A DNA stretch of 64,000 bases from a phage: assembly GCA_014685065.1 (NCBI GenBank), contig GCA_014685065.1_3930.1. One strand, given 5' to 3'. Each line of letters begins with the position of its first letter. The first letter of the stretch is position 1. Below, piece after piece: positions 15,321 through 55,224 of the stretch. The position numbers were made by a program, and so were the translations under genes. The notes beneath the pieces were generated by a model, which had not been told where the DNA came from, did no database searches, and saw only the letters and a list, made by a program, of their open reading frames with translations.

Positions 15321-15378
15321 TGCTTTTTATAATTTTTTGCAGTAATGTATGAGGTTAATGATTTTAGAGGGAGTAAAA

Positions 15379-18078
15379 ATGGAAAACGTAGATTTTAAAA
15401 ACTTACATTTAGTTGGTGATACAGAAACTGATGGTTTACTCCTTGAGTTCACTAAAGTGCACGTAATGGCTTTCGCAGACTATAAATCTGATGATGAAGA
15501 GCCACCTGTATGGGTCTTTACAGATGAGCCTATCCTCGGTCACAAGTACACTAAGTACATCAAGGGTGGCTTACGTGAAGGTATTGAGTTTGCGTTAAAG
15601 GCAAAACGTCTTTGCATCCACAACGGTCTCGGTTATGACTGGTGGGTTTTCAATCACATTGCACCTGATTTATGGAACTTTGATAATCCAAAGTGTAAAC
15701 CGTGGAGTAATTTCTTTCAGGATTCTCTTATTCAGTCTCGTGTTCAATGGATGGATAGACCAACTCCAAAAGGCTATAAAGGTGCTCATGGCTTGGCAGC
15801 ATGGGGTGCTCGTGTTGGTGTTCGTAAACCAGAGATTGAACATTGGGGTGTGTGGAATGCAGAAATCTTCACTCGTGTTGTAGAAGATATCCGTATTAAC
15901 GCCAAAACTAAACGGGCACTTGATAACGAGTATCTCAAGCTTAAGAAGTGTGGCATAGACACTTATGAAACCTACATGCGAGCTAAAGAGACATCTTTCT
16001 GGATGAGCCAGCAAGCTATCAATGGTTGGAAAGCTGATAAAGAGCTTATGGAGTTCCATGTAAAGGAACTTGACAAGCTGACTAATGAGCTTGCTTCAGA
16101 GGTTGAACCACATCTACCTCCAACTATTAAGACCAAAGGTAAAGTAACTGGTGAAGAGTTTGCAAAGGCTTGGAATGAGTATGTTGAAACATTTGGTCAT
16201 GCAGATGGGTTGAAGAGAATCACCAAGTATCCTAAGACGAAGTACCGTCAACAGGTGCGTAACGGTGAGATGCAGACATACGAAATCAAACCATTTGGTA
16301 AGCCAACTACAAAGATTTTTAACATTGAAAAGAGAAATTGCTATACGCCAACCAACTCTGTAACTGGTGAAGAGTACAAGGAAGGTTTTGTAGCAATGAA
16401 GGATGCTCGTGCAATTTGCAATGAGTTGAATGCAAAGATTGGTAAGAAATGCAAAGACTGGAAGCCAGTAAAAACAGTTAAGACTGTGAAGTACTATAAC
16501 AGCCATGTTGTTAACCACTTTGAGCTTGAGTCAAGTCGCTACACAGGTTTGATTGATGCACCATATACACCAATCGAGTTCGAAGTTTCTCGTATGACTC
16601 AGGTAGCAGTTGTTAAAGACTACTTGAAATCAGTTGGTTGGATTCCAGATGACTGGAACTATAAGAAAGACTCTGATGGTCGTCCTGTTAAGGTTTGTCG
16701 CTTCAAAGACAACAAAAAGATGATTACAAAGCATCCTAAATGGCAGGAGATGGTTGAACGGTGTGGTTTGAGTTATGTTGAACATGAAGGTGTCCAGTAC
16801 ATTGAGCATAACTGGTCTGTTAAGAAGTACACAGATTTGCTTGAACCTTGCTTAATCCGTACTTCACCAAAACTTACTGAGTCATCTTATGATACGATTG
16901 AAGGTGAGCTTGGACAGAAGATTGCTAAGTACTATACTTTGATGCACCGACGCAGAACTATTGAGAACTCAAAGGATGATGAAAAAGGTTGGTTGAACCA
17001 GATTCGTCCTGATGGTCGCCTTAGTGCTGGTGCAATGGTGTTTGGTACTTCAACTGGACGTATGACACAATATGGTATTGTAAACGTACCGTCTGGTGCT
17101 GCTGTCTATGGGGAACCAATGAGGGCAGTGTGGATTTGTGAAGAGGGAACCAACGTAGTATCTGTAGATATGAACTCAGCCCAGCTAGTTCTTCTTTGTA
17201 ACTTTATGGGTGATAAAGACTTCACCAAAGCGGTAACGCAAGGTAAAGAAGAGATTGAGTTCATTCGTCAAGAAGATGGACGCTATTACTGCAAACATTT
17301 TGATGAGTACCTCAACCCAGAGATTGATAAGTACCTTCGCTATGACTCTGAGAATGACCTGTACGTTGTCTATTCAGGGACTGATGCACATACACTGAAC
17401 AGTATTTACTTTAACTTGAACGATGAGCAGGACATCTTGACTTGTCGAGCTACTCAGGATGAGAATCTTCTTCATGAGATTAGTAAGGGTCGTAAGAAAG
17501 CTAAGAATGGTATCTATGCACTGCTGTTCGGTGCAGGTGATGAGAAGTTTGCTAAGACGATTAAAGCTGCAACTACTCAGGAAGGTGCGCTGACTAAACA
17601 GACTTACTTTATTCGTTTGCCTAAAATTAAAAAGCTGCTAGATGACTTGGAAGCTGACTACAAAGCAACTAAAAAGGCACTTGAAGAGGTATTTGGTAAG
17701 ACTGCTGCAATCTCTAAAGGTGGTTTTGTAAAGGTTGCTGGAGCTTGGTTGTGGTGTAAATCTCCACACAAATTATTGAACTATCTTTTGATGGGTTCAG
17801 AGGCTCAGATTCAAAATGAGGCGATTAACCTTGCTTGTCGTCGTATGATTGACGAAGGCTTGATGAAGTTGAATGGTCGCAAACCAGCTATTGGTGCTCG
17901 TTTACTCTGCGCATATCACGATGAGACGAGTTGGGAATGTCCAGAAAGCATGACGGCAGAGGTGAAAGCGGTTACTGACTGGTATTATGGACAAGCTTCT
18001 AAGAACTTAGGTCTTAAGAAAGAAACACTTGTTACAGGTACTGGTAAGGTTGGTAAAAGCTGGCTTGAGGTTCACTAA
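15379..18078 (+). CDS. DNA polymerase, family A (T7 gp5-like)
   Basis: Start set at ATG 15379 (strong RBS GAGGGAG); exo motif GDTETDG near the N-terminus, motif B-like RKKAKNGIYALLFGAG, motif C-like YHDETSWE. Confidence 0.9.
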   Translation: MENVDFKNLHLVGDTETDGLLLEFTKVHVMAFADYKSDDEEPPVWVFTDEPILGHKYTKYIKGGLREGIEFALKAKRLCIHNGLGYDWWVFNHIAPDLWNFDNPKCKPWSNFFQDSLIQSRVQWMDRPTPKGYKGAHGLAAWGARVGVRKPEIEHWGVWNAEIFTRVVEDIRINAKTKRALDNEYLKLKKCGIDTYETYMRAKETSFWMSQQAINGWKADKELMEFHVKELDKLTNELASEVEPHLPPTIKTKGKVTGEEFAKAWNEYVETFGHADGLKRITKYPKTKYRQQVRNGEMQTYEIKPFGKPTTKIFNIEKRNCYTPTNSVTGEEYKEGFVAMKDARAICNELNAKIGKKCKDWKPVKTVKTVKYYNSHVVNHFELESSRYTGLIDAPYTPIEFEVSRMTQVAVVKDYLKSVGWIPDDWNYKKDSDGRPVKVCRFKDNKKMITKHPKWQEMVERCGLSYVEHEGVQYIEHNWSVKKYTDLLEPCLIRTSPKLTESSYDTIEGELGQKIAKYYTLMHRRRTIENSKDDEKGWLNQIRPDGRLSAGAMVFGTSTGRMTQYGIVNVPSGAAVYGEPMRAVWICEEGTNVVSVDMNSAQLVLLCNFMGDKDFTKAVTQGKEEIEFIRQEDGRYYCKHFDEYLNPEIDKYLRYDSENDLYVVYSGTDAHTLNSIYFNLNDEQDILTCRATQDENLLHEISKGRKKAKNGIYALLFGAGDEKFAKTIKAATTQEGALTKQTYFIRLPKIKKLLDDLEADYKATKKALEEVFGKTAAISKGGFVKVAGAWLWCKSPHKLLNYLLMGSEAQIQNEAINLACRRMIDEGLMKLNGRKPAIGARLLCAYHDETSWECPESMTAEVKAVTDWYYGQASKNLGLKKETLVTGTGKVGKSWLEVH

Positions 18079-18139
18079 TTAGTATTGACAAGGTGCTCAT
18101 GGAAGAGTACCTTATACTGTATCTTGTATAGGAGGTCAC

Positions 18140-18349
18140 ATGACGCTTTCAGAGATTGAAGTTCAGTTGCAATGTGCAGGTTATTCTCAAAAAGAGATTG
18201 AAGACATGCTTATTGTTATTTGCAGTGGTTATAGAGTAAACCCTGAAGCTCTGCGTATAGCAGATATCTTTATTGCTGGAGGGAAAATCGCAAAAGATAA
18301 GACAGGGTACTTAAAAGGTGAACGTGTAGACATCGAGAATTTGCTATGA
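18140..18349 (+). CDS. hypothetical small protein, paralog A
   Basis: 69 aa; C-terminus GKIAKDKTGYLKGERVDIENLL is shared with the ORF at 18552-18770. Confidence 0.5.
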   Translation: MTLSEIEVQLQCAGYSQKEIEDMLIVICSGYRVNPEALRIADIFIAGGKIAKDKTGYLKGERVDIENLL

Positions 18350-18555
18350 GTCACCGTGGAAGAACCCATGCAGCGATGATGAAAGGTGCTTCAAAGGAAA
18401 CTATCAAGAACCGTAAGCAGAAGTTGTTTGAGAGAATGAATAGACTCATTGATAACACTTCCCTGTCTGGTGGTGAGAAAGTTTTCCTTAAAAGTAACCT
18501 TAAAAGCATTGCACAAGAACTTGTAGATATTGAATATTGGAGACATCAAAAATGA
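18346..18555 (+). CDS. hypothetical basic protein
   Basis: 69 aa ORF, ATGA overlap with the upstream gene. Confidence 0.45.
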   Translation: MSHRGRTHAAMMKGASKETIKNRKQKLFERMNRLIDNTSLSGGEKVFLKSNLKSIAQELVDIEYWRHQK

Positions 18556-18770
18556 CACTTGCAGACGTTATTCAGCAACTTCACGACAATTGCTATACTC
18601 CAGAGTTGATTCAGGAGATGTGTATTGTAGTCATGCCTAGCAAGTTCGTAAAAACCTTTAACAGCGACACTTTAAGGTCTACACACATCCTTATCGTTGA
18701 CGGTAAGATTGCAAAAGACCGTACTGGAGTACTCAAAGGTGAACGTATTGATATTCTGGAGTTGCTATGA
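18552..18770 (+). CDS. hypothetical small protein, paralog B
   Basis: Start set at ATG 18552 (RBS GGAGA); C-terminus GKIAKDRTGVLKGERIDILELL. Confidence 0.5.
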   Translation: MTLADVIQQLHDNCYTPELIQEMCIVVMPSKFVKTFNSDTLRSTHILIVDGKIAKDRTGVLKGERIDILELL

Positions 18771-19036
18771 AGAAAATGTACAGTCTCTGGGGAAGTATTA
18801 TGTGGAAAGCAGTAATTGCGCTTGGTGTTGTTTTTCTATCTGGCTGCAACCCTTCTTATGAAGATAAAAATGCTTCTTACAGTCTCCCACCAGAGATGCA
18901 AGATTGCAGAGTATACAAGTTACATGGTGATGCTATAAGCAGAGATATTGTTGTTGTCAGATGTCCAAACTCCCAAACAACAACATCTTATAGCTATGGC
19001 AAAAATGGTCAATCACACACTACGGTTATTGAGTGA
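18767..19036 (+). CDS. putative lipoprotein
   Basis: 89 aa; hydrophobic N-terminus ending in lipobox-like LSGC. Confidence 0.5.
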   Translation: MKKMYSLWGSIMWKAVIALGVVFLSGCNPSYEDKNASYSLPPEMQDCRVYKLHGDAISRDIVVVRCPNSQTTTSYSYGKNGQSHTTVIE

Positions 19037-19046
19037 GGTTTTCACG

Positions 19047-19253
19047 ATGGAAGTCTTAGTAAACTACATCTATTGTTATGATGTTGTTCACTCCACTACA
19101 ACCGTAGCTCAACGTAATCCAATCGTCCCACGAGAAGGTGAGTTGGTTCGCATTGAGGGTTGGACTTACACTGTGGAAAGCATCATTCATAAGTTTGATG
19201 TTGCTGGCGATGTTCAAGTTATCGACGTAGAGATTGGTGGTAAGAGAAAATGA
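19047..19253 (+). CDS. hypothetical protein
   Basis: Trimmed to ATG 19047 after a GAGG RBS; the longer track ORF overlaps the upstream gene. Confidence 0.4.
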   Translation: MEVLVNYIYCYDVVHSTTTVAQRNPIVPREGELVRIEGWTYTVESIIHKFDVAGDVQVIDVEIGGKRK

Positions 19254-19468
19254 CTGTAGAAGATAAATTTAAGAACGCAGTTCTTACAGAAGATGGTGAG
19301 CTTGAAACATTCATTCTTCGTGTTGATGGTAAGCTATTCCGGTGTCGTTGTGGGTCAAACTGTTTCCACAAACCAGATAAAAATGACTTAGAGCTTTACG
19401 CATGTAATGCTTGCAATACTTGGTATCACTCAGAGGTTAAAAATGACAATTCTGTACAAACAAAATAA
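19250..19468 (+). CDS. hypothetical Cys-rich (zinc-ribbon-like) protein
   Basis: 72 aa with CRCGSNC...CNACN. Confidence 0.45.
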   Translation: MTVEDKFKNAVLTEDGELETFILRVDGKLFRCRCGSNCFHKPDKNDLELYACNACNTWYHSEVKNDNSVQTK

Positions 19469-20543
19469 AGATGGTTCCTTCAACGTCTGGTCATGTGTTG
19501 CTGTAGGTGACAAAGTTATTACAACCTATGGTAAAGAAAATGGCAAGATGATGTTTGAAGAGTATACAGCAGAACCTAAAAACATCGGTAAAAAGAATGA
19601 GCGTAACGCTGAACAGCAAGCCCTCTTTGAAGTTGCTGCTAAGTATAAAAAGCAAGTTGACCGCAAAGGTTATGCTTACACAAAAGAGTCTGCACAGAAT
19701 ACTGAGAAGGTAGGTGTACAGCTTGCTCATGATGCTGCAAAGGTTAGTCATGCAAAGTATCTGAAGTTCCCTGCTGATGCTCAACCAAAACTTGATGGTG
19801 TCCGTTGTAGAATTTCAAGAGATGCTGATTTAGTTAGCTTCACGGCTTATTCTCGTGAGAATACTATTTACAACGTCCCAGCAGAACTAATCCCAGATTT
19901 GCTTTTGTTGCTTAAATTGCATCCACAAGTCGAAGACTTTGATGGTGAGATTTATGCTCATGGTTGGGACTTAGAAGATATTGTGTCTATGATTAAAAAT
20001 GCTGACAATCCAGACCGACATCTACTCCAGTTCTACTGGTACGATATCTGTGACAGTACTAAGACGTGGCCTGAGCGTAGAGATATTATTGAGACTTCAC
20101 CATTGAATGACTTTAGAGATGGCTGTAAAGTTATCCCTGTTAAGTCTCGTCGTGTAAATTCTTGGGAAGAGTTTGATGAAGCTCATGATAAGTGGGTTGA
20201 AGCTAAGTTTGAAGGTGCAATGTACCGTTCAATCTCTGAAGAATCTTTCTATGAGTGTGGTCACCGTTCATACTTCTTGATTAAGCACAAGAAGATGCAC
20301 ACTGAAGAGTTTAAAGTGACTGGTGTAAAGACTGATAAGCGTGGTCATGGTAAGTTCGTTGTAGAGACTCTTCCTAACGTCTTTGTAGATGTCTCATGGA
20401 AGACTACTCATGAGAAGAAACAGTATCTTGCTGAACATCCTGAAGAGTTTATCGGGAAACCTTTGACGGTTCAGTTCCAGAAGATGACTCGTAAAGGTTC
20501 TTTACAGTTCCCTGTTGGGTTAGTTATTCGAGACTACGAATAA
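19443..20543 (+). CDS. ATP-dependent DNA ligase
   Basis: Start set at ATG 19443 (RBS GAGG); adenylation motif I KLDGVRC present; about 366 aa. Confidence 0.85.
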   Translation: MTILYKQNKDGSFNVWSCVAVGDKVITTYGKENGKMMFEEYTAEPKNIGKKNERNAEQQALFEVAAKYKKQVDRKGYAYTKESAQNTEKVGVQLAHDAAKVSHAKYLKFPADAQPKLDGVRCRISRDADLVSFTAYSRENTIYNVPAELIPDLLLLLKLHPQVEDFDGEIYAHGWDLEDIVSMIKNADNPDRHLLQFYWYDICDSTKTWPERRDIIETSPLNDFRDGCKVIPVKSRRVNSWEEFDEAHDKWVEAKFEGAMYRSISEESFYECGHRSYFLIKHKKMHTEEFKVTGVKTDKRGHGKFVVETLPNVFVDVSWKTTHEKKQYLAEHPEEFIGKPLTVQFQKMTRKGSLQFPVGLVIRDYE

Positions 20544-20550
20544 AAAGTTG

Positions 20551-20578
20551 TTGACATAGAAAATTTGGTGAGTATACT
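20551..20578 (+). promoter_or_regulatory. sigma70-like promoter
   Basis: TTGACA (20551-20556) - 16 nt - TATACT (20573-20578), upstream of the 20821 operon. Confidence 0.55.
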
Positions 20579-20608: not shown

Positions 20609-20647
20609 CATCACTTAAGGGTCTTCTAAGAGGGTTTTTAAGTGATG
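20609..20647 (+). repeat. conserved 39-nt hairpin element, copy 1
   Basis: CATCACTTAAgggtcttctaagagggtttTTAAGTGATG, 10-bp stem; near-identical copy at 22001-22039. Confidence 0.6.
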
Positions 20648-20718
20648 TTTGGTGTGGTGCGGTGGTGTGGGGTGTAGTTTTGTGTTGTTAGGTGTTGTTA
20701 GGTGAGGTATGGGTGGAT
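20648..20718 (+). repeat. G/T-only low-complexity tract
   Basis: About 70 nt composed almost entirely of G and T (ggtgtggtgcggtggtgtggggtgt...). Confidence 0.6.
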
Positions 20719-20744
20719 GGTAGTAGCCACGTTAAAAATCTACC
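20719..20744 (+). other. hairpin GGTAG-16 nt-CTACC (covarying with 22111-22136)
   Basis: Second copy has GGCAG/CTGCC with the same loop start tagcc...aaaaat. Confidence 0.5.
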
Positions 20745-24008: not shown

Positions 24009-24269
24009 ATGAAAATTGAACACTGCTATGAGTCTGATGGAACACCTATCCGTTGTCCACATTGCGGGTGTACAGACTTACAAGGTGAGGTAAGTGAAAT
24101 AGTCAACGGTCATATTGCTGAAGAAAGTACCCGATGCACAGGGTGTAATGAAATTATCGCTTTCTGGGCTTATGGTTCATACCAACCCTCTCCACATTTT
24201 ATCTACCATCGTAGTAAAGTTGTGAAGAGTGTTATCAACTGGTTCATTAAGAAAGGATTTACAAAATGA
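24009..24269 (+). CDS. hypothetical Cys-rich protein
   Basis: 86 aa; CPHCGC...CTGC. Confidence 0.45.
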   Translation: MKIEHCYESDGTPIRCPHCGCTDLQGEVSEIVNGHIAEESTRCTGCNEIIAFWAYGSYQPSPHFIYHRSKVVKSVINWFIKKGFTK

Positions 24270-49732: not shown

Positions 49733-49808
49733 TGGAGAATCCGAAGGGACTCGAACCCTTATAAACCTGTTTTGCAGACAGGCACATAGCCATTTCTGTC
49801 ACGGATTC
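49733..49808 (-). tRNA. tRNA-Cys (anticodon GCA)
   Basis: Hand fold: acceptor GAATCCG/CGGATTC, T-arm GGGTTCGAGTCCC, anticodon loop CTGCAAA, CCA encoded. Confidence 0.6.
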
Positions 49809-49812
49809 AAAT

Positions 49813-49905
49813 TGGAGGAAGATACCAGACTTGAACTGGTACACCGATTTCTCAGCTACTGGCAGTTTAGCAAACTGCTCCCTTACCTTTTAGGGTTAAT
49901 CTTCC
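49813..49905 (-). tRNA. tRNA-Ser (anticodon GCT), class II
   Basis: 93 nt; acceptor GGAAGAT/ATCTTCC, anticodon stem GCAGT/ACTGC with loop TTGCTAA, long variable arm. Confidence 0.55.
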
Positions 49906-49906
49906 A

Positions 49907-50641
49907 TTATTTCTGTAATGCGTTCTTCATTTCTGGTGTTGCAATAGTGTCAATTACACCAGTTTTACAGGCATCATCAAACCAGTCTGGTAAGATACCT
50001 GCTAAGAACCCATTGATATTCGTTTTAAGGTACTCTGCAATAAGGGCAGCTTCTTCTTCAATCATCTGCACAACTTCATCTGCATAAGCTGTAATCTTTG
50101 AGATACCTTCATTAATCTTACTGACAGCTTGGTTAGCTAAATCAGAAACAGTATCAAGACCCTTGTCAATAGCGTCTTGTAAGTCACTTAATACATCGTT
50201 AACACTCTCTAGTGTACTGTTAATCGTATCAATAGCTTTTTGACCATATTCTGTAGCAACACCCATAATACCACTGAACGGTGTACAACCAACTTGTTCT
50301 CCTGCTGCACCCATAACATTGGAATATCCATTTGCTACCTGCATACGTGATGAAAACTCATCAATAGATTTTTGACCGTAGTCTGTCAGGGTCTTAGTAG
50401 TTGCTGTAGTGCTTGTAAGGCTTGTTGTAAAGCTGTTTAGAAGGACTGTTGTAAGTCCAGCAGCAACAAGTTTCTCCTGCATTGTAGGGTCTGTTACAGA
50501 ACTAATAGAGCTTACAAGTGATGTAGAAGCAGCTACGGTTCCACCGAGAACTGCTGCACCAGTAATAAGTGGGTTAGAAAACCCTTTACCGGTTTTTAAG
50601 AGATTAAAAATCTCCTTACCTTGTTCTGTCATCTCTTTCAT
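49907..50641 (-). CDS. hypothetical Ser/Thr/Ala-rich protein embedded in the tRNA array
   Basis: Track ORF trimmed to an internal ATG so it does not overlap the tRNA at 50660-50734; about 244 aa. Confidence 0.4.
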   Translation of the reverse strand: MKEMTEQGKEIFNLLKTGKGFSNPLITGAAVLGGTVAASTSLVSSISSVTDPTMQEKLVAAGLTTVLLNSFTTSLTSTTATTKTLTDYGQKSIDEFSSRMQVANGYSNVMGAAGEQVGCTPFSGIMGVATEYGQKAIDTINSTLESVNDVLSDLQDAIDKGLDTVSDLANQAVSKINEGISKITAYADEVVQMIEEEAALIAEYLKTNINGFLAGILPDWFDDACKTGVIDTIATPEMKNALQK

Positions 50642-50659
50642 TAAGCACCTTTGAAATTG

Positions 50660-50734
50660 GTAGTCCAGTGGGATTTGAACCCTCTTCTCATGTTTTTCAG
50701 ACACGCGCTTTAACCATATAAGCTACTTGGACTA
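50660..50734 (-). tRNA. tRNA-Phe (anticodon GAA)
   Basis: Acceptor TAGTCCA/TGGACTA, T-loop TTCAAAT, anticodon stem CGTGT/ACATG with loop CTGAAAA. Confidence 0.5.
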
Positions 50735-50739
50735 TAAAT

Positions 50740-50815
50740 TGGGGTGACCTACGGGATTTGAACCCGTATAGACCATGTTCACAGCATGGGTCATTGCCAT
50801 TTATGATAAGGCCAC
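50740..50815 (-). tRNA. tRNA-His (anticodon GTG)
   Basis: Anticodon stem CCATG/CATGG, loop CTGTGAA; T-arm ACGGGTTCAAATCCCGT. Confidence 0.6.
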
Positions 50816-50846
50816 ATTTAAGGACTCTCGTAAGAACCCTTAGAAG

Positions 50847-50922
50847 TGGCAGCGGCATAAGGATTTGAACCTTAATAGGACAGCTTCAGAGACTGTTGCA
50901 TTGCCAGTTATGCTATACCGCT
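50847..50922 (-). tRNA. tRNA-Gln (anticodon CTG)
   Basis: D-stem GCAT/ATGC, anticodon loop CTCTGAA, T-arm TAAGGTTCAAATCCTTA. Confidence 0.55.
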
Positions 50923-50927
50923 AAATT

Positions 50928-51006
50928 TGGTACTCCATATCGGATTCGAACCGATACATAACACAGATTTTAAGTCTGGCCTCTCTGCCAATTGGAGTAA
51001 TGGAGC
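50928..51006 (-). tRNA. tRNA with Leu anticodon TAA but short variable arm (class I-like)
   Basis: Acceptor GCTCCAT/ATGGAGT, discriminator A, D-loop AATTGGCA, anticodon loop CTTAAAA, T-arm ATCGGTTCGAATCCGAT; aligns with the tRNAs at 51751 and 52329. Confidence 0.45.
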
Positions 51007-51008
51007 AT

Positions 51009-51084
51009 TGGCGGGGGATGTTGGAATTGAACCAACTTCTTCGATTTCAAAGACCGAGGTTTTAACCTTGTAAACTAATCCCCT
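51009..51084 (-). tRNA. tRNA-Gln (anticodon TTG)
   Basis: Anticodon stem TCGGT/ATCGA, loop CTTTGAA; T-arm GTTGGTTCAATTCCAAC. Confidence 0.55.
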
Positions 51085-51092
51085 TTAAATCT

Positions 51093-51650
51093 TTACTTTC
51101 TCAGTGGATGAATAAAGAATGCCAACATAACTCTTTCCCTTGAGAATGCTCTTTCTTCTGGGACAACACTTTTTAGTTTCCATCCAATATAAATTCTCCA
51201 GTAAAACTGTTTACCAAAGACTTTAATTGATGGGATAAAAGCGAATAATCCCCAAGCATTACTGTTCCACATTAGGAGATAACCTGTCTGATTATCTTCA
51301 GGGTCAGAACTTACGTTGATATTACCTTTCCACTTAGTAACATCTTTTACATCTCTTCCTAATACATGGTAAGAGAAGTTATAAGCTTTGTTTCTCCAGA
51401 GCCATCCGACTCTCTGCATGTAGACACCCAGCTTACCAATCTTTCTAATCTTAGCCCATCGTTCGATATGACCTTCGTCACCATCAATTGGATTGTCATA
51501 TGTCTCCATCCATCTAAATCCGAAAGGTAAGTGGCCTTTCTTCTCACTGTAAAATGGAACTACGAAAGGTGCTAAGATAACTGCTAAGGTTGCTGCTAAT
51601 GGTTCTAGCAAAGCTAGGAAAATCCATGAAGCATATTTTAAATATCTCAT
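51093..51650 (-). CDS. hypothetical membrane protein embedded in the tRNA array
   Basis: 185 aa; N-terminal TM segment (WIFLALLEPLAATLAVILAPFVV), Trp-rich body. Confidence 0.5.
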   Translation of the reverse strand: MRYLKYASWIFLALLEPLAATLAVILAPFVVPFYSEKKGHLPFGFRWMETYDNPIDGDEGHIERWAKIRKIGKLGVYMQRVGWLWRNKAYNFSYHVLGRDVKDVTKWKGNINVSSDPEDNQTGYLLMWNSNAWGLFAFIPSIKVFGKQFYWRIYIGWKLKSVVPEERAFSRERVMLAFFIHPLRK

Positions 51651-51669
51651 CTAAATAGCCTCTTTAAAT

Positions 51670-51745
51670 TGGCGCAGGATAAGGGATTCGAACCCCTATT
51701 AACAGCTTCGTAGACTGTTGCTCTATCCATTTGAACTAATCCTGC
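51670..51745 (-). tRNA. tRNA-Arg (anticodon ACG)
   Basis: D-arm GTTC...GAGC, anticodon stem ACAGT/GCTGT with loop CTACGAA. Confidence 0.55.
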
Positions 51746-51750
51746 AAAAT

Positions 51751-51828
51751 TGGTGTTCCAAGACGGATTCGAACCGTCACTAGTACAAGGTTTGAGCTTG
51801 CATCCTCTGCCAATTGGGATACTGGAAC
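51751..51828 (-). tRNA. tRNA with Leu anticodon CAA but short variable arm (class I-like)
   Basis: Acceptor GTTCCAG/TTGGAAC, discriminator A, D-loop AATTGGCA, anticodon stem GCAAG/CTTGT with loop CTCAAAC. Confidence 0.45.
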
Positions 51829-51829
51829 A

Positions 51830-51904
51830 TGGTACTCACTAAAGGACTTGAACCTTTTTCTTCATCTTGTAAGGGTGGTGTTTTACCATATAAACTAAGC
51901 GAGT
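51830..51904 (-). tRNA. tRNA-Val (anticodon TAC), tentative
   Basis: Good acceptor, D-arm (GTTT/AAAC) and T-arm (AAAGGTTCAAGTCCTTT); anticodon stem is weak, loop read as CTTACAA. Confidence 0.4.
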
Positions 51905-51910
51905 ATGAAA

Positions 51911-51992
51911 GAGGTCTGAAGTTGTGCCGCTAACTCAACTCCGTGGAATTTGTTACGGTCTTCAGTTGACACCAGCGGTCTTTCACTTGACC
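51911..51992. other. tRNA-sized structured element without canonical T-loop
   Basis: Terminal inverted repeat GAGGTC / GACCTC about 80 nt apart with internal hairpins (CCGT...ACGG); no GTTCRA motif on either strand. Confidence 0.35.
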
Positions 51993-51999
51993 TCTGAAT

Positions 52000-52076
52000 T
52001 GGTGCTGCTCACAGGACTCGAACCTGCATTTCCATCCTTACAAGGGATGTGTAATAGCCAATTATACGAAAGCAGC
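52000..52076 (-). tRNA. tRNA-Thr (anticodon TGT)
   Basis: Perfect anticodon stem CATCC/GGATG, loop CTTGTAA. Confidence 0.6.
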
Positions 52077-52082
52077 ATTGTT

Positions 52083-52157
52083 TGGAGCATCCAGAGGGAA
52101 TCGAACCCTCAACCTCAGTTTGGAAGACTGTAATTTTCCCGTTTAAACTATGGATGC
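52083..52157 (-). tRNA. tRNA-Gly (anticodon TCC)
   Basis: Acceptor GCATCCA/TGGATGC, anticodon loop CTTCCAA, T-arm GAGGGTTCGATTCCCTC. Confidence 0.55.
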
Positions 52158-52163
52158 ACTAAT

Positions 52164-52240
52164 TGGTGGAGAAGCAGGGAATTGAACCCTGTACTTAAGT
52201 TTGCAAAACTTATGTTTTAACCATGTAAACTACATCCCCA
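52164..52240 (-). tRNA. tRNA-Ala (anticodon TGC)
   Basis: D-stem GTTT/AAAC, anticodon stem TAAGT/ACTTA with loop TTTGCAA. Confidence 0.6.
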
Positions 52241-52245
52241 ATGTT

Positions 52246-52321
52246 TGGTACAGGTGGAGGGAATTGAACCCATCGTCTTACTGATTAAGAGTCAGCCGCA
52301 TAACCATTTTGCTACACCTGC
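52246..52321 (-). tRNA. tRNA-Lys (anticodon CTT)
   Basis: Anticodon loop CTCTTAA; paralogous in sequence to the Lys(TTT) tRNA at 53966. Confidence 0.5.
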
Positions 52322-52328
52322 ATTAATT

Positions 52329-52405
52329 TGGTACACCTAGAGAGATTCGAACTCACACTGAGCAGATTCTAAGTCTGCTGCCTCTACCAATTGGGCTATA
52401 GGTGC
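52329..52405 (-). tRNA. tRNA with Leu anticodon TAG but short variable arm (class I-like)
   Basis: Acceptor GCACCTA/TAGGTGT, discriminator A, D-loop AATTGGTA, perfect anticodon stem GCAGA/TCTGC with loop CTTAGAA, variable region only about 5 nt. Confidence 0.5.
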
Positions 52406-52663
52406 ATTAAATCTTTTTAGAGAACTTCTAAGAACCTAAGCAACAAGGTTCCACAACAAGCTGTAATAACCTTAGAAGCCCTCTAAAAAGACCTAATTTG
52501 GTCTTTGCATAGTCTTGTTTAATCCGGTGACTAGAACCTTTGGAGAGCTTGATATTATCTCTTCTCCGTGACACCTACTAGGTGCTTTACTGTGCGTGTA
52601 CGACAATACACGAGGGATACCAAAGCAACATCCGAATGAAGCTTGGCTTTAAATCTTATTAGG
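52406..52663 (-). ncRNA. structured non-coding spacer within the tRNA array (candidate small stable RNA)
   Basis: No ORF and no tRNA; several hairpins (CTTCTAAG...CTTAGAAG 8 bp; AGACC-taattt-GGTCT; CGTGTA-cgacaa-TACACG). Confidence 0.3.
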
Positions 52664-52751
52664 CGGTAAGTAAAGGAGTCGAACCCTCACCGTATCTCTA
52701 CAGTGGCAACTGTTTTCAAGACAGTTTGGCTACCATTAGCCGCTACCTACC
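52664..52751 (-). tRNA. tRNA-Ser (anticodon TGA), class II
   Basis: 88 nt; perfect anticodon stem ACTGT/ACAGT with loop CTTGAAA; long variable arm; CCA not encoded. Confidence 0.55.
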
Positions 52752-52764
52752 CCTAATAAGACTT

Positions 52765-52847
52765 TGGCATGGGACGGAGGAGTTGAACCACTTTGAAACG
52801 GTTTTGGAGGCCGTTGCTCATGCCTTAGAGTCTTAACATCGTCCCAC
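52765..52847 (-). tRNA. tRNA-Trp (anticodon CCA), atypical
   Basis: 83 nt; acceptor GTGGGAC/GTCCCAT, anticodon region ACGGC-CTCCAAA-ACCGT; T-stem imperfect. Confidence 0.4.
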
Positions 52848-52989
52848 ACTATAATTCGAAGCTTACCGTATTTTCACAACACTGTAAAGCCCCTTCTCAG
52901 ATTATTTACATGTTCTGGAAAACATGAGATACAGACCACCTCCTTACACGGAGACCCGATAAGGTCGTCTAAGCAATCTGCTAACTATT

Positions 52990-53066
52990 TGGCACACCCT
53001 ACAGGATTCGAACCTGTAACTAACGATTTAGAAGACCGTTGCTCTATCCAATTGAACTAAGGGTGC
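52990..53066 (-). tRNA. tRNA-Arg (anticodon TCT)
   Basis: Anticodon stem ACGGT/ATCGT, loop CTTCTAA; T-arm ACAGGTTCGAATCCTGT. Confidence 0.55.
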
Positions 53067-53313
53067 ATTAATCTTTAAAGACTCTCTTAGAAAGCCCTTA
53101 AAGATGCCCACCTTATTAATCATACCGTGGGCGAGTACGCCAAATTCTTTGATGAGGGATTGGAAGACCTCACTGGTGTTTAGCCTATCAAGCTACTGCC
53201 AGAAAAACATTGTCGTTTGCATTTATTTTAAATTTGCAAAATAGACGCTACGCAACGAAAACTAAGGTTACTATAAAGTGGTCACATCTCAATGTCAACA
53301 ACTTTATTGAAAT

Positions 53314-53389
53314 TGGTACTGTGAGAAGGATTCGAACCTTCTGCCTTTCGGTTATCAGCCGAATGCACATCCATATGTGCTTTCACAGC
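53314..53389 (-). tRNA. tRNA-Ile (anticodon GAT)
   Basis: Perfect anticodon stem TTCGG/CCGAA, loop CTGATAA. Confidence 0.6.
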
Positions 53390-53868
53390 ATTGTTACCCC
53401 TTCGTGTACCTCTCTGTGGCAATTTGCACACAGTAATACACACTTATCAACTTCAGACTTCATTACCTCTATAGAGAAGTGTTTTTGTCCTACTGTGAAG
53501 TCCTTTGTATTAGGGTCTAAGTGGTGAAACTCTAAAGCCTTTATGCACTTATTGTATCCACAAATTGAGCAACAACCACCTTTGTAATCAACTAAAACCC
53601 TCTTAAGTTTGTCACGAGACTTTTTAACGTGTTGTGACTTCGCTTTCTTTTCTTCATCGGGGTTTTTGTATTGTTTCAGAATACCATTTGAAATACATTC
53701 ATCACAATACTTTCTTGATTTTGGTGTTTGTTTTCCACATGAATGACAAGAGCCTTCTTGTCTTCTTTTTGGATGACTCTTGTTGTTTACCCTTGCAGCA
53801 CAAGAGCGTGAACAATATTTTCCGCCTTTAACGGCTTTGTTGTCACAATCTTTATTAGCACAAAACAT
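53383..53868 (-). CDS. HNH homing endonuclease
   Basis: Trimmed to ATG 53866-53868 (RBS GGTGA) so it does not overlap tRNAs; Cys-rich N-terminal region; C-terminal HNH motif EFHHLDPNTKD...CANCHREVH. Confidence 0.7.
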   Translation of the reverse strand: MFCANKDCDNKAVKGGKYCSRSCAARVNNKSHPKRRQEGSCHSCGKQTPKSRKYCDECISNGILKQYKNPDEEKKAKSQHVKKSRDKLKRVLVDYKGGCCSICGYNKCIKALEFHHLDPNTKDFTVGQKHFSIEVMKSEVDKCVLLCANCHREVHEGVTML

Positions 53869-53884
53869 AATATCACCAACGAAT

Positions 53885-53961
53885 TGGAGGTTCAGATGGG
53901 AATCGAACCCACATTCATAGGGCTTATGAGACCCCTGCATTACCTTATCTGCGACTGAACC
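53885..53961 (-). tRNA. tRNA-Met (anticodon CAT)
   Basis: Acceptor GGTTCAG/CTGAACC perfect; anticodon stem GGGGT/GCCCT, loop CTCATAA. Confidence 0.55.
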
Positions 53962-53965
53962 ATAT

Positions 53966-54041
53966 TGGTAGAAGTGGAGGGATTCGAACCCATCGCCTGT
54001 CAGATTAAAAGTCTGCCGCATCACCATTCTGCTACACTTCC
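53966..54041 (-). tRNA. tRNA-Lys (anticodon TTT)
   Basis: Anticodon loop CTTTTAA; T-arm ATGGGTTCGAATCCCTC. Confidence 0.5.
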
Positions 54042-54045
54042 ATTA

Positions 54046-54181
54046 AAATTATCTTTGTAGATAAGCTATCCAGACTTGCTTAAGGTCTGTAGCGATGTGC
54101 CTTGTTGGGTTTAAATCTAGAATTTACCCTTTCACTCTTTGTGGTCGCATACTCACAGGTAAGCTTAATAACTTATCTACA
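54046..54181. repeat. 19-bp perfect inverted repeat flanking a ~98-nt spacer
   Basis: aattatctttgtagataag (54046-54064) is the exact reverse complement of cttatctacaaagataatt (54163-54181); inner CAGAC...GTCTG hairpin. Confidence 0.55.
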
Positions 54182-54241
54182 AAGATAATTACCAGACCGT
54201 TGTTTATCATCTTAAGTGCTACCATTACACCAACTCGACAT

Positions 54242-54266
54242 CTGCCGAGTGAAGGAATCGAACCTT
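54242..54266 (-). other. tRNA 3'-half-like fragment (T-arm plus acceptor 3' strand only)
   Basis: Canonical GAAGGTTCGATTCCTTC T-arm followed by ACTCGGC-A, but no complementary 5' acceptor strand found within 120 nt. Confidence 0.3.
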
Positions 54267-54497
54267 CGCCTTTTCTTTACCGGAGAAATAGATTGTTTAA
54301 GTTTTGCTGTAAACGGTCTTCTGTAAATTTGTTGAGCCAGACCAAGTTTTAAATTTTCAAAATTAAATTGGCTTGAAATTTCATACATTCTTGCTGTATT
54401 TGGTCTTCTGCTCCTTTAAAGAATACTCGTAAGAACCCTTTAAGGGAGGGGCTAAATAGCCCTCTCAAAACATCATCTTGAAATACTTATTATAATT

Positions 54498-54574
54498 TGG
54501 CGGTTACGAAGGGATTTGAACCCTCATCATCTCCCGTGACAGGGGAGTATTTTAACCAGTTAAACTACATAACC
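54498..54574 (-). tRNA. tRNA-Asp (anticodon GTC)
   Basis: Perfect anticodon stem CTCCC/GGGAG, loop CTGTCAC; D-stem GTTT/AAAT. Confidence 0.6.
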
Positions 54575-54580
54575 TTTATT

Positions 54581-54668
54581 TGGTGTGCCGTGTAGGAGTC
54601 GAACCTACCGAGTCTCAATGACAAGGGATTTACAGTCCCCACCGCTACCATCTACGGGATAACGACAC
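54581..54668 (-). tRNA. tRNA-Tyr (anticodon GTA), class II
   Basis: 88 nt; anticodon stem GGGGA/TCCCT, loop CTGTAAA; long variable arm. Confidence 0.5.
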
Positions 54669-54737
54669 ATTTAATTTCTATTCAGGCTAAGGACTTGCAC
54701 CTTACAAATCGGTGAGCAATCGCTTCTCTCCTAAATT

Positions 54738-54814
54738 TGGCGGTTAGTCAGGGATTCGAACCCTGTGCCATTCGCTTAACAGGCGACCGCACATACCTTA
54801 TGTGCTTCCTAACC
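54738..54814 (-). tRNA. tRNA-Asn (anticodon GTT)
   Basis: Anticodon loop CTGTTAA; T-arm CAGGGTTCGAATCCCTG. Confidence 0.5.
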
Positions 54815-54891
54815 TTAATACATTGCCAGACCGTGTTTTTTCTTTTATCCGCAAAAAGTATTTTGTTGCTGAATACGGTCTTCTGCAAAAT

Positions 54892-54968
54892 TGGAGGCGG
54901 GTGCAGGAGTCGAACCTGCCGATACCATGCTAATGAGACATGTGAGACGCCCTTTCTCTATACCCGCA
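54892..54968 (-). tRNA. tRNA with anticodon CAT (Met or Ile2), tentative
   Basis: Anticodon stem CATGT/GCATG, loop CTCATTA (position 37 is T, unusual); 1-72 mismatch in acceptor. Confidence 0.4.
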
Positions 54969-55059
54969 ATTCTTAATGACCAGACCAAATCTCTTCTTTG
55001 TCCGATTTACCTTCAGATGAATAAGATTAAGTTTGCTGTAATTGGTCTTCTGTCAAAAC

Positions 55060-55137
55060 TGGCGTTCCAGAAGGGATTTGAACCCTCAAATATCCACTTT
55101 GAAAGAGTGGTGACTTTACCATTTTGTCTACTGGAAC
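55060..55137 (-). tRNA. tRNA-Glu (anticodon TTC)
   Basis: Perfect acceptor GTTCCAG/CTGGAAC and anticodon stem CCACT/AGTGG, loop CTTTCAA. Confidence 0.6.
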
Positions 55138-55144
55138 ATTAATT

Positions 55145-55224
55145 TGGTCTCCGTTGAAGGATTTGAACCCTCGACCCCTTGCTCCCAAAGCAAGTGCTGC
55201 TAAACCAAACTGAGCTAAACGGAG
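55145..55224 (-). tRNA. tRNA-Pro (anticodon TGG)
   Basis: Perfect acceptor CTCCGTT/AACGGAG and anticodon stem CTTGC/GCAAG, loop TTTGGGA with G37. Confidence 0.6.

Follow-up and report, generated by a model that had tools for sequence, protein, structure and literature searches.

Two anciently diverged members of a very small phage-restricted orphan family beside the DNA polymerase gene of a Felix O1-like phage

T7 gp5.5, gp5.7 and gp5.9 are short, non-structural, host-directed proteins that are encoded after the T7 DNA polymerase gene and co-expressed with the replication genes. The two small proteins described here, A and B, resemble them in genomic setting, as they too are encoded between a family-A polymerase gene and the gene for the next replication or recombination enzyme. 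The likeness serves as a working analogy only and does not imply membership: A and B have no detectable sequence or fold similarity to the T7 proteins, and neither structural model has a match in the PDB. One of the T7 proteins, 5.9, has been called a RecBCD inhibitor (PMC11482910).

The closest described relatives of A and B are the members of phrog_4230, also catalogued as VOG9270. Among these are Felix O1 ORF93 (whose product is Gp93), wV8 gp103, Bas63 bas63_0044, and mio_62 and mio_64 of Escherichia phage mio. A and B share the length, the position after the polymerase gene and the motif of these proteins, and no difference sets them apart from the family. The family is thus already known, and its two-copy state is present in about 35 GenBank records under the name ‘hypothetical protein’.

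The DNA analyzed, hereafter the window, is a stretch of 64,000 nucleotides (contig GCA_014685065.1_3930.1) from a Felixounavirus, a Felix O1-like myovirus. Its segment 17500-19500 (2 kb) is matched by 259 phage records at 80-99% identity, nearly all of them from Felixounavirus or relatives, with mio as the best full-length match. Elsewhere in the window, 26 tRNA genes found by ARAGORN (24 by Rfam) lie on the - strand at 49733-55224, which is typical of Felix O1-like phages.

Layout of the polymerase-ligase interval

The genes of A and B are separated by a third small gene, here called X. The features of the locus are as follows, in window coordinates.

15349-18078: family-A DNA polymerase gene, upstream of A-X-B
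18085-18139, + strand: leader, directly 5′ of the first small gene, A
18140-18349, + strand: gene A, 69 aa, Mooglevirus-type family member (clade A)
18281-18346, + strand: A motif GKIAKDKTGYLKGERVDIENLL, 22 residues (residues 48-69)
18346-18555, + strand: gene X, 69 aa, phrog_5180, unrelated to A and B
18552-18770, + strand: gene B, 72 aa, Felixounavirus-type family member (clade B)
18702-18767, + strand: B motif GKIAKDRTGVLKGERIDILELL, 22 residues (residues 51-72)
19407-20543: ATP-dependent DNA ligase gene (open reading frame), downstream of A-X-B

The start of B was taken as the ATG at 18552 because all orthologues begin with MTL, though the reading frame could extend to a TTG at 18537. ATGA overlaps occur at all three junctions, and X is translationally coupled to both A and B. 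The operon starts with the near-invariant leader, right behind the DNA polymerase gene, and extends into the DNA ligase gene; about 200 bp separate A from B. X itself is strongly basic (pI 10.3), and no other small gene of the interval is as constrained.

An initial annotation of this DNA had described paralogous small genes sharing a C-terminal motif, and two proteins of about 70 aa with one gene between them. Both descriptions hold: the reading frames occupy exactly the positions at which it placed them, the motif reads as quoted, and the intervening gene is unrelated to its neighbors. The two 22-residue motifs are identical at 17 of 22 positions by direct count. Over their full length, A and B are identical at 33 of 72 positions (46% identity, BLASTP E 5e-18). 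The near-identical C-terminus was therefore described correctly, while the divergent N-termini, if meant as unrelated, were not: 10 of the first 26 residues are identical (MTL, QL, Y, I, M and IV, by direct count), in keeping with homology over the full length of the two proteins. When a family HMM was run against the 940 six-frame reading frames of the window, exactly A and B matched, and nothing else fell below E 0.8.

An alignment of 24 sequences defines what the family conserves. Q9, L10, Y15, I20 and M23 are invariant in the N-terminal part, as are D53, T55, G56, L58, K59, G60 and E61 in the motif. The first set of residues and KDxTGxLKGE are present in both window proteins. The variable parts are the middle, at about residues 27-45, and the last four to six residues, where orthologues end in ILELL, IDLSF, IGL or IDI. 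Given this variability of middle and tail, the conserved core is better described as GKIxKDxTGxLKGE than as the whole 22-mer.

The leader (18085-18139, about 50 nt, TTGACAAGGTGCTCATGGAAGAGTACCTTATAC...TATAGGAGG) hardly varies across Felixounavirus and Mooglevirus. It contains TTGACA, a perfect -35 hexamer, a hairpin of 9 bp with arms AAGGUGCUC and GAGUACCUU, and the Shine-Dalgarno sequence TATAGGAGG. Its first 33 nt differ by zero to two mismatches in all Felixounavirus and Mooglevirus loci, while dS in the coding DNA beside it is 0.3-0.8. The element is constant whether a polymerase or a homing endonuclease gene lies upstream and whether A, X or B lies downstream, and it occurs only once in the window. 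The hairpin has a predicted energy of -22.6 kcal/mol (z -2.4), and its only common variant is in the loop; as the leader is almost without variation, the hairpin has no covariation support. No Rfam family matched the leader at the gathering threshold. The leader could be a promoter, a processing site or an operator, and any promoter or RNA-element role is putative.

The interval and its surroundings carry several other small features. At 18767-19036, ATGA-coupled to B, lies a gene for a predicted lipoprotein of 89 aa (phrog_902) with a signal peptide and the lipobox LSGC. It is variably present, with other small genes in its place in relatives, and may encode a superinfection-exclusion or envelope factor. 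A 72-aa Cys-rich protein (CxC...CxxC, phrog_5768) is encoded at 19250-19468. It is 97% identical to bas63_0040; only some relatives have its gene, which in mio carries the erroneous annotation ‘DNA ligase’. Bas63 g40 is a validated trigger of the hhe defense system (PMC11482910), and since the window gene is its orthologue, the interval contains genes relevant to host immunity. After the ligase gene, an unusual G/T-rich, C-poor stretch occupies 20630-20720 (ggtgtggtgcggtggtgtggggtgtag...), and upstream of it a strong match to a sigma-70-like promoter, TTGACA-16-TATACT, is found at 20551-20578. Further down the operon, an 86-aa reading frame at 24009-24269 (phrog_2993) corresponds in synteny and length to Bas63 g32 and is taken as its orthologue; g32 has been described as Lar-like (PMC11482910). 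The window reading frame had no Pfam match.

Family membership, predicted fold and a remote relative

Both window proteins match phrog_4230 over their entire length. A aligns with E 5e-33 (residues 1-69 against profile positions 1-72 of 72) and B with E 9.9e-43 (residues 1-72 against the same 72 positions). A is 100% identical to mio_62, and the mio orthologues of A and B both carry pVOG VOG9270. A and B are anciently diverged members of one very small, phage-restricted orphan family. Its size was gauged in several ways. A collection of 5.8 billion proteins contained 134 clusters at 90% identity for B and 28 for A. A profile search of this collection, taken to a second iteration with divergent members included, gave 175 clusters, and the matches listed all belonged to the same close family. 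An exhaustive HMMER scan of 1.84 billion proteins yielded only 12 representatives at 50% identity.

Searches beyond the family were negative. Scans of A and B against Pfam, NCBIfam and PADLOC found nothing, in the case of Pfam even at E <= 1. A sequence profile search of the PDB gave nothing below E 0.26, with sub-threshold hits of E 0.26-0.28 over the N-terminal helix pair. In Foldseek searches of the PDB, neither model had a neighbor, and the best E was above 4. Across these resources (Pfam, NCBIfam, PADLOC, PDB and Foldseek), no characterized anti-defense or host-takeover inhibitor matched in sequence or fold. Two likenesses seen by eye also failed to find a profile. A resemblance of ‘DIFIAGGKIAKDKTG’ to the KOW motif of ribosomal L24 and NusG was dropped, as no KOW or SH3 profile matched at E <= 1, and a SAP/HeH likeness of the N-terminal helix pair likewise had no profile match, with only the PDB hits of E 0.26-0.28.

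AlphaFold2 modeled both proteins with high confidence (pLDDT 92.3 for A and 93.1 for B). The models share a common order of elements: helix, short helix, strand, helix, beta-hairpin, conserved loop and short C-terminal helix. Each protein, of about 8 kDa, is predicted to form a compact alpha/beta domain in the cytoplasm. Both are mildly acidic, with pI values of 4.8 and 5.5.

The only non-trivial structural matches of this fold, found by Foldseek in BFVD, are two Kuravirus proteins. The A model matches the 73-aa phiEco32 entry B0FIR2 with a TM score of 0.57-0.60. Two 73-aa proteins are encoded by phiEco32, and B0FIR2 is probably the one named phi32_100. Against the family profile, phi32_100 gave an hhalign probability of 92.6% (E 4.5e-7, 55 columns, score 37.4), compared with control scores of 9.3 +/- 2.0 for 200 shuffles (maximum 17) and 17.1 for the best of 95 other small phiEco32 reading frames. 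The other 73-aa protein, phi32_104, was rejected as a relative with a probability of 0.3%.

Like the family, phi32_100 has an N-terminal helix and a hairpin, with the pattern TLSxVE...Y...M...H(I/Y)LI(V/I)DGxxxK(D/S)R(T/H)G. Unlike A and B, it carries an 18-residue N-terminal extension, stops right after the hairpin without LKGERxDIxxLL, and is encoded in a small-gene block about 23 kb from the phiEco32 polymerase gene. The phi32_100 gene overlaps one annotated as a transcriptional regulator. The protein is found in 13 phage records and has no PHROG match at E <= 0.01. This link suggests that the domain moves between unrelated coliphages. Together with the apparently unmatched fold and the invariant leader, it is what is new here, and these are modest points.

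Age, selection and distribution

The initial annotation had further regarded the pair as locally duplicated, and the DNA argues otherwise. A direct repeat was sought in 18079-18800 and none was found. At the nucleotide level, the two genes are 52% identical in their N-terminal and 67% identical in their C-terminal parts, and synonymous sites are saturated (dS about 1.7 overall and 2.2 in the motif). In the 22-codon motif, pS is 0.71 and pN is 0.22, and only 44 of 66 nt are identical, which indicates conservation by protein-level selection and not by recent duplication or gene conversion. In a neighbor-joining tree, the A protein of UAB_Phi87 pairs with that of Sf13, the sole copy of a Mooglevirus, and the window A joins them, while B forms a separate clade. 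The saturated dS, the absence of a repeat and the grouping of A with Mooglevirus copies together point to an ancient split, whose two products a minority of genomes have acquired or retained side by side. This split is much older than the two genera, as A and B are 46% identical whereas the polymerase C-termini of the genera are about 95% identical to each other. The two-copy state may reflect either retention or lateral acquisition.

The pair had also been called diversifying, a description that the substitution rates contradict. Gene-wide omega was estimated pairwise within lineages by the Nei-Gojobori method, giving 0.14 for A, 0.11-0.19 for B and 0.06-0.07 for X. The A and B values are low and close to those of the polymerase C-terminus (0.07) and the ligase N-terminus (0.08). 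By this measure, A and B are under purifying selection. The interpretation given in the initial annotation is thus upheld only in part. The homology search proposed in the initial annotation, in which a conserved structural or housekeeping family would have spoken against host takeover, did reveal a conserved family; it is not structural and only possibly housekeeping.

Copies of the B type (at least 80% identity by tblastn) are present in about 218 phage records and copies of the A type (at least 60% identity by tblastn) in 66. Both occur together in about 35-37 of some 255 records (about 14%), the window among them. None of the Felixounavirus and Mooglevirus loci examined lacks the gene altogether. 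The two-copy locus is therefore a minority configuration of an otherwise single-copy gene that is near-universal in two genera.

Maps of 38 loci show how the gene is arranged. In VpaE1 the polymerase gene is followed by B, and in a second locus (L016) by X and B. A homing endonuclease gene precedes X and B in Felix O1, Bas63 and a further locus (L017). The window, mio and UAB_Phi87 have A, X and B in this order, and Mooglevirus has A, X and a lipoprotein gene. X is present in 22 of the 38 loci, always adjoining a family member, and many phages have B without X. Other small genes of the polymerase-ligase interval also come and go between relatives. Divergent metagenomic members, which are 38-46% identical to A in the family alignment, likewise lie between polA and the ligase gene.

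The endonuclease is a free-standing protein of 167-175 aa (Felix O1 ORF95 in L037, bas63_0046 in L042, and 3228-3743 in L017), annotated as HNH in Felix O1. In close relatives its gene has inserted downstream of the polymerase stop codon and ahead of the invariant leader; the window lacks it. The idea that A and the endonuclease of Felix O1 and L017 are alternative occupants of one site was rejected, because the endonuclease lies upstream and A downstream of the leader and because L016 has neither. In VpaE1, the polymerase gene itself is split by an endonuclease insertion.

Isolated phages with the family come from Escherichia, Shigella, Salmonella and Citrobacter only, save three records filed under Campylobacter or Staphylococcus. 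This restriction to enteric hosts holds with a divergent member as the query, and phages of Erwinia, Pectobacterium and Yersinia gave no match even then. In the related Pectobacterium phage Wc4, the polymerase and ligase genes are arranged in the same way, and no member was detected in the 6.2-kb locus that spans the interval. At the DNA level, the Wc4 polymerase shares about 73% identity with that of L004, a divergent contig that does carry a family member.

Candidate functions

Published data on two relatives bear on the role of the family. In Felix O1, ORF93 is the orthologue of B and ORF94 that of X. By RT-PCR, ORF93 reaches its maximum at 25 min. Its class also holds ORF96 (polymerase), ORF88 (ligase), ORF89 and ORF90, and is distinct from the 5- and 10-min classes (PMC3185647, Table 3). 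A peak at this time, alongside polymerase and ligase, means that the B orthologue is not the early gene that the initial annotation had supposed. Gp93 was also absent among 17 Felix O1 virion proteins detected by gel and shotgun mass spectrometry, methods that small low-abundance proteins may escape (PMC3185647), and a non-structural family is thereby supported.

In Bas63 (MZ501086), bas63_0044 is the orthologue of B, and bas63_0045 is that of X by position and length. The PhageMaP preprint screened Bas63 knockouts on four hosts and 12 defense strains (PMC11482910). It names g77, g79, g80, g84, g85 and g130 as counters, g40 and g123 as triggers, and g32 as Lar-like (PMC11482910). Its text mentions neither g44 nor g45, and g44 is not given as a counter, a trigger or a conditionally essential gene (PMC11482910). 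The HIDEN-SEQ essentiality preprint covers no Felixounavirus.

The reading we favor, with low confidence and at somewhat less than an even chance, is that the family acts as a non-structural accessory factor whose invariant KDxTGxLKGE loop engages a conserved partner in enterobacteria. The loop, which follows the beta-hairpin, would contact one conserved partner together with the conserved N-terminal helix pair. This partner would most likely be a protein of the Escherichia, Salmonella, Shigella or Citrobacter host and not a part of the phage replisome. The variable middle and tail might tune specificity, in which case a phage with both A and B could cover two target variants. That the motif has persisted while synonymous sites between A and B became saturated speaks for a conserved binding surface common to both. 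A host-directed binder is preferred because the family tracks enteric host range rather than polymerase lineage, because the polymerase-ligase interval of Wc4 lacks a member despite related replication genes, and because the domain recurs in the unrelated podovirus phiEco32, far from its polymerase gene. It also sits in an island of exchangeable accessory genes, with the orthologue of a reported defense trigger as one neighbor and, further down the operon, that of a gene reported as Lar-like (PMC11482910).

Several observations count against a host binder. No functional homology was found for A or B in Pfam, NCBIfam, PADLOC, PDB sequence or Foldseek searches. Synteny with polymerase and ligase is kept in divergent metagenomic relatives, expression is co-timed with these genes, and g44 is not named in the text of the Bas63 screen (PMC11482910). 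Low omega and near-universal presence in two genera fit a housekeeping role as well as a host-directed one. A bolder version of the host-directed reading is unlikely, though worth stating: the family would be a new fold that inhibits or hijacks a conserved protein of Enterobacteriaceae, in immunity or housekeeping, and that has spread between Ounavirinae myoviruses and Kuravirus podoviruses, with A and B as specificity variants that widen the range of hosts or defense alleles.

The main rival is an accessory factor of the replisome, which we consider improbable but better placed than the remaining alternatives. Such a protein would bind the phage family-A DNA polymerase, the ligase or the primase-helicase and tune replication, for example in processivity, Okazaki-fragment joining or polymerase loading, with A and B as isoforms. 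The family does lie downstream of polA and upstream of the ligase gene in every Ounavirinae-type locus that carries it, divergent metagenomic ones included, and ORF93 shares its expression class with polymerase and ligase in Felix O1 (PMC3185647, Table 3). Low omega and the presence of at least one copy in each Felixounavirus and Mooglevirus locus examined are also as expected of a replication factor. Partnership with the replisome is harder to reconcile with Wc4, whose polymerase is related to that of L004 and whose ligase gene is adjacent, with no member between them, or with the lack of matches in phages of Erwinia, Pectobacterium and Yersinia. The phiEco32 homologue, moreover, is encoded among other small genes, some 23 kb away from the polymerase gene of that phage, and A and B are only 46% identical compared with 88-99% for the polymerases (C-terminal 200 aa).

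A small regulator of expression is a weaker third option and a distinctly improbable one. It would bind nucleic acid or RNA polymerase and act in the middle-to-late switch, or in autoregulation of the operon via the leader hairpin, perhaps with X as a partner. Its appeal lies in the N-terminal LxxIxxQLxxxGY(S/T)xxEI, a helix-turn-helix-like pair that resembles HeH/SAP by eye and in the sub-threshold PDB hits (E 0.26-0.28), in the invariant leader in front of the gene, and in X, which is very basic and always adjacent. The regulator annotated in overlap with phi32_100 also fits, and Felix O1 has temporal classes yet no recognized RNA-polymerase modifiers (PMC3185647). The regulatory reading is weakened by the mildly acidic character of A and B (pI 4.8-5.5), by the lack of any Pfam, NCBIfam or PDB match to a DNA-, RNA- or RNA polymerase-binding family, by the many phages that have B without X, and by a hairpin that lacks covariation support.

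Least credible, and largely refuted, is a recent local tandem duplication under diversifying arms-race selection, which two homologous small genes 200 bp apart in an interval of changing gene content would suggest, and against which stand saturated dS between A and B without a DNA repeat, omega of 0.11-0.19 within each lineage, the grouping of A with Mooglevirus copies and the single-copy state of most genomes.

The finding is a fairly ordinary one, as it adds another pair of hypothetical proteins to a catalogued orphan family in a well-sampled genus. Its modest value lies in a confidently predicted fold without a structural neighbor, in a protein that is near-universal in two genera employed in phage therapy and in the typing of Salmonella and that, at 8 kDa, is small enough for rapid structure determination and testing. 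With A, B or both behind an identical leader, the locus is also a natural experiment in dosage and specificity. Should the partner turn out to be a host protein, the KDxTGxLKGE loop would constitute a new interface between phage and host.
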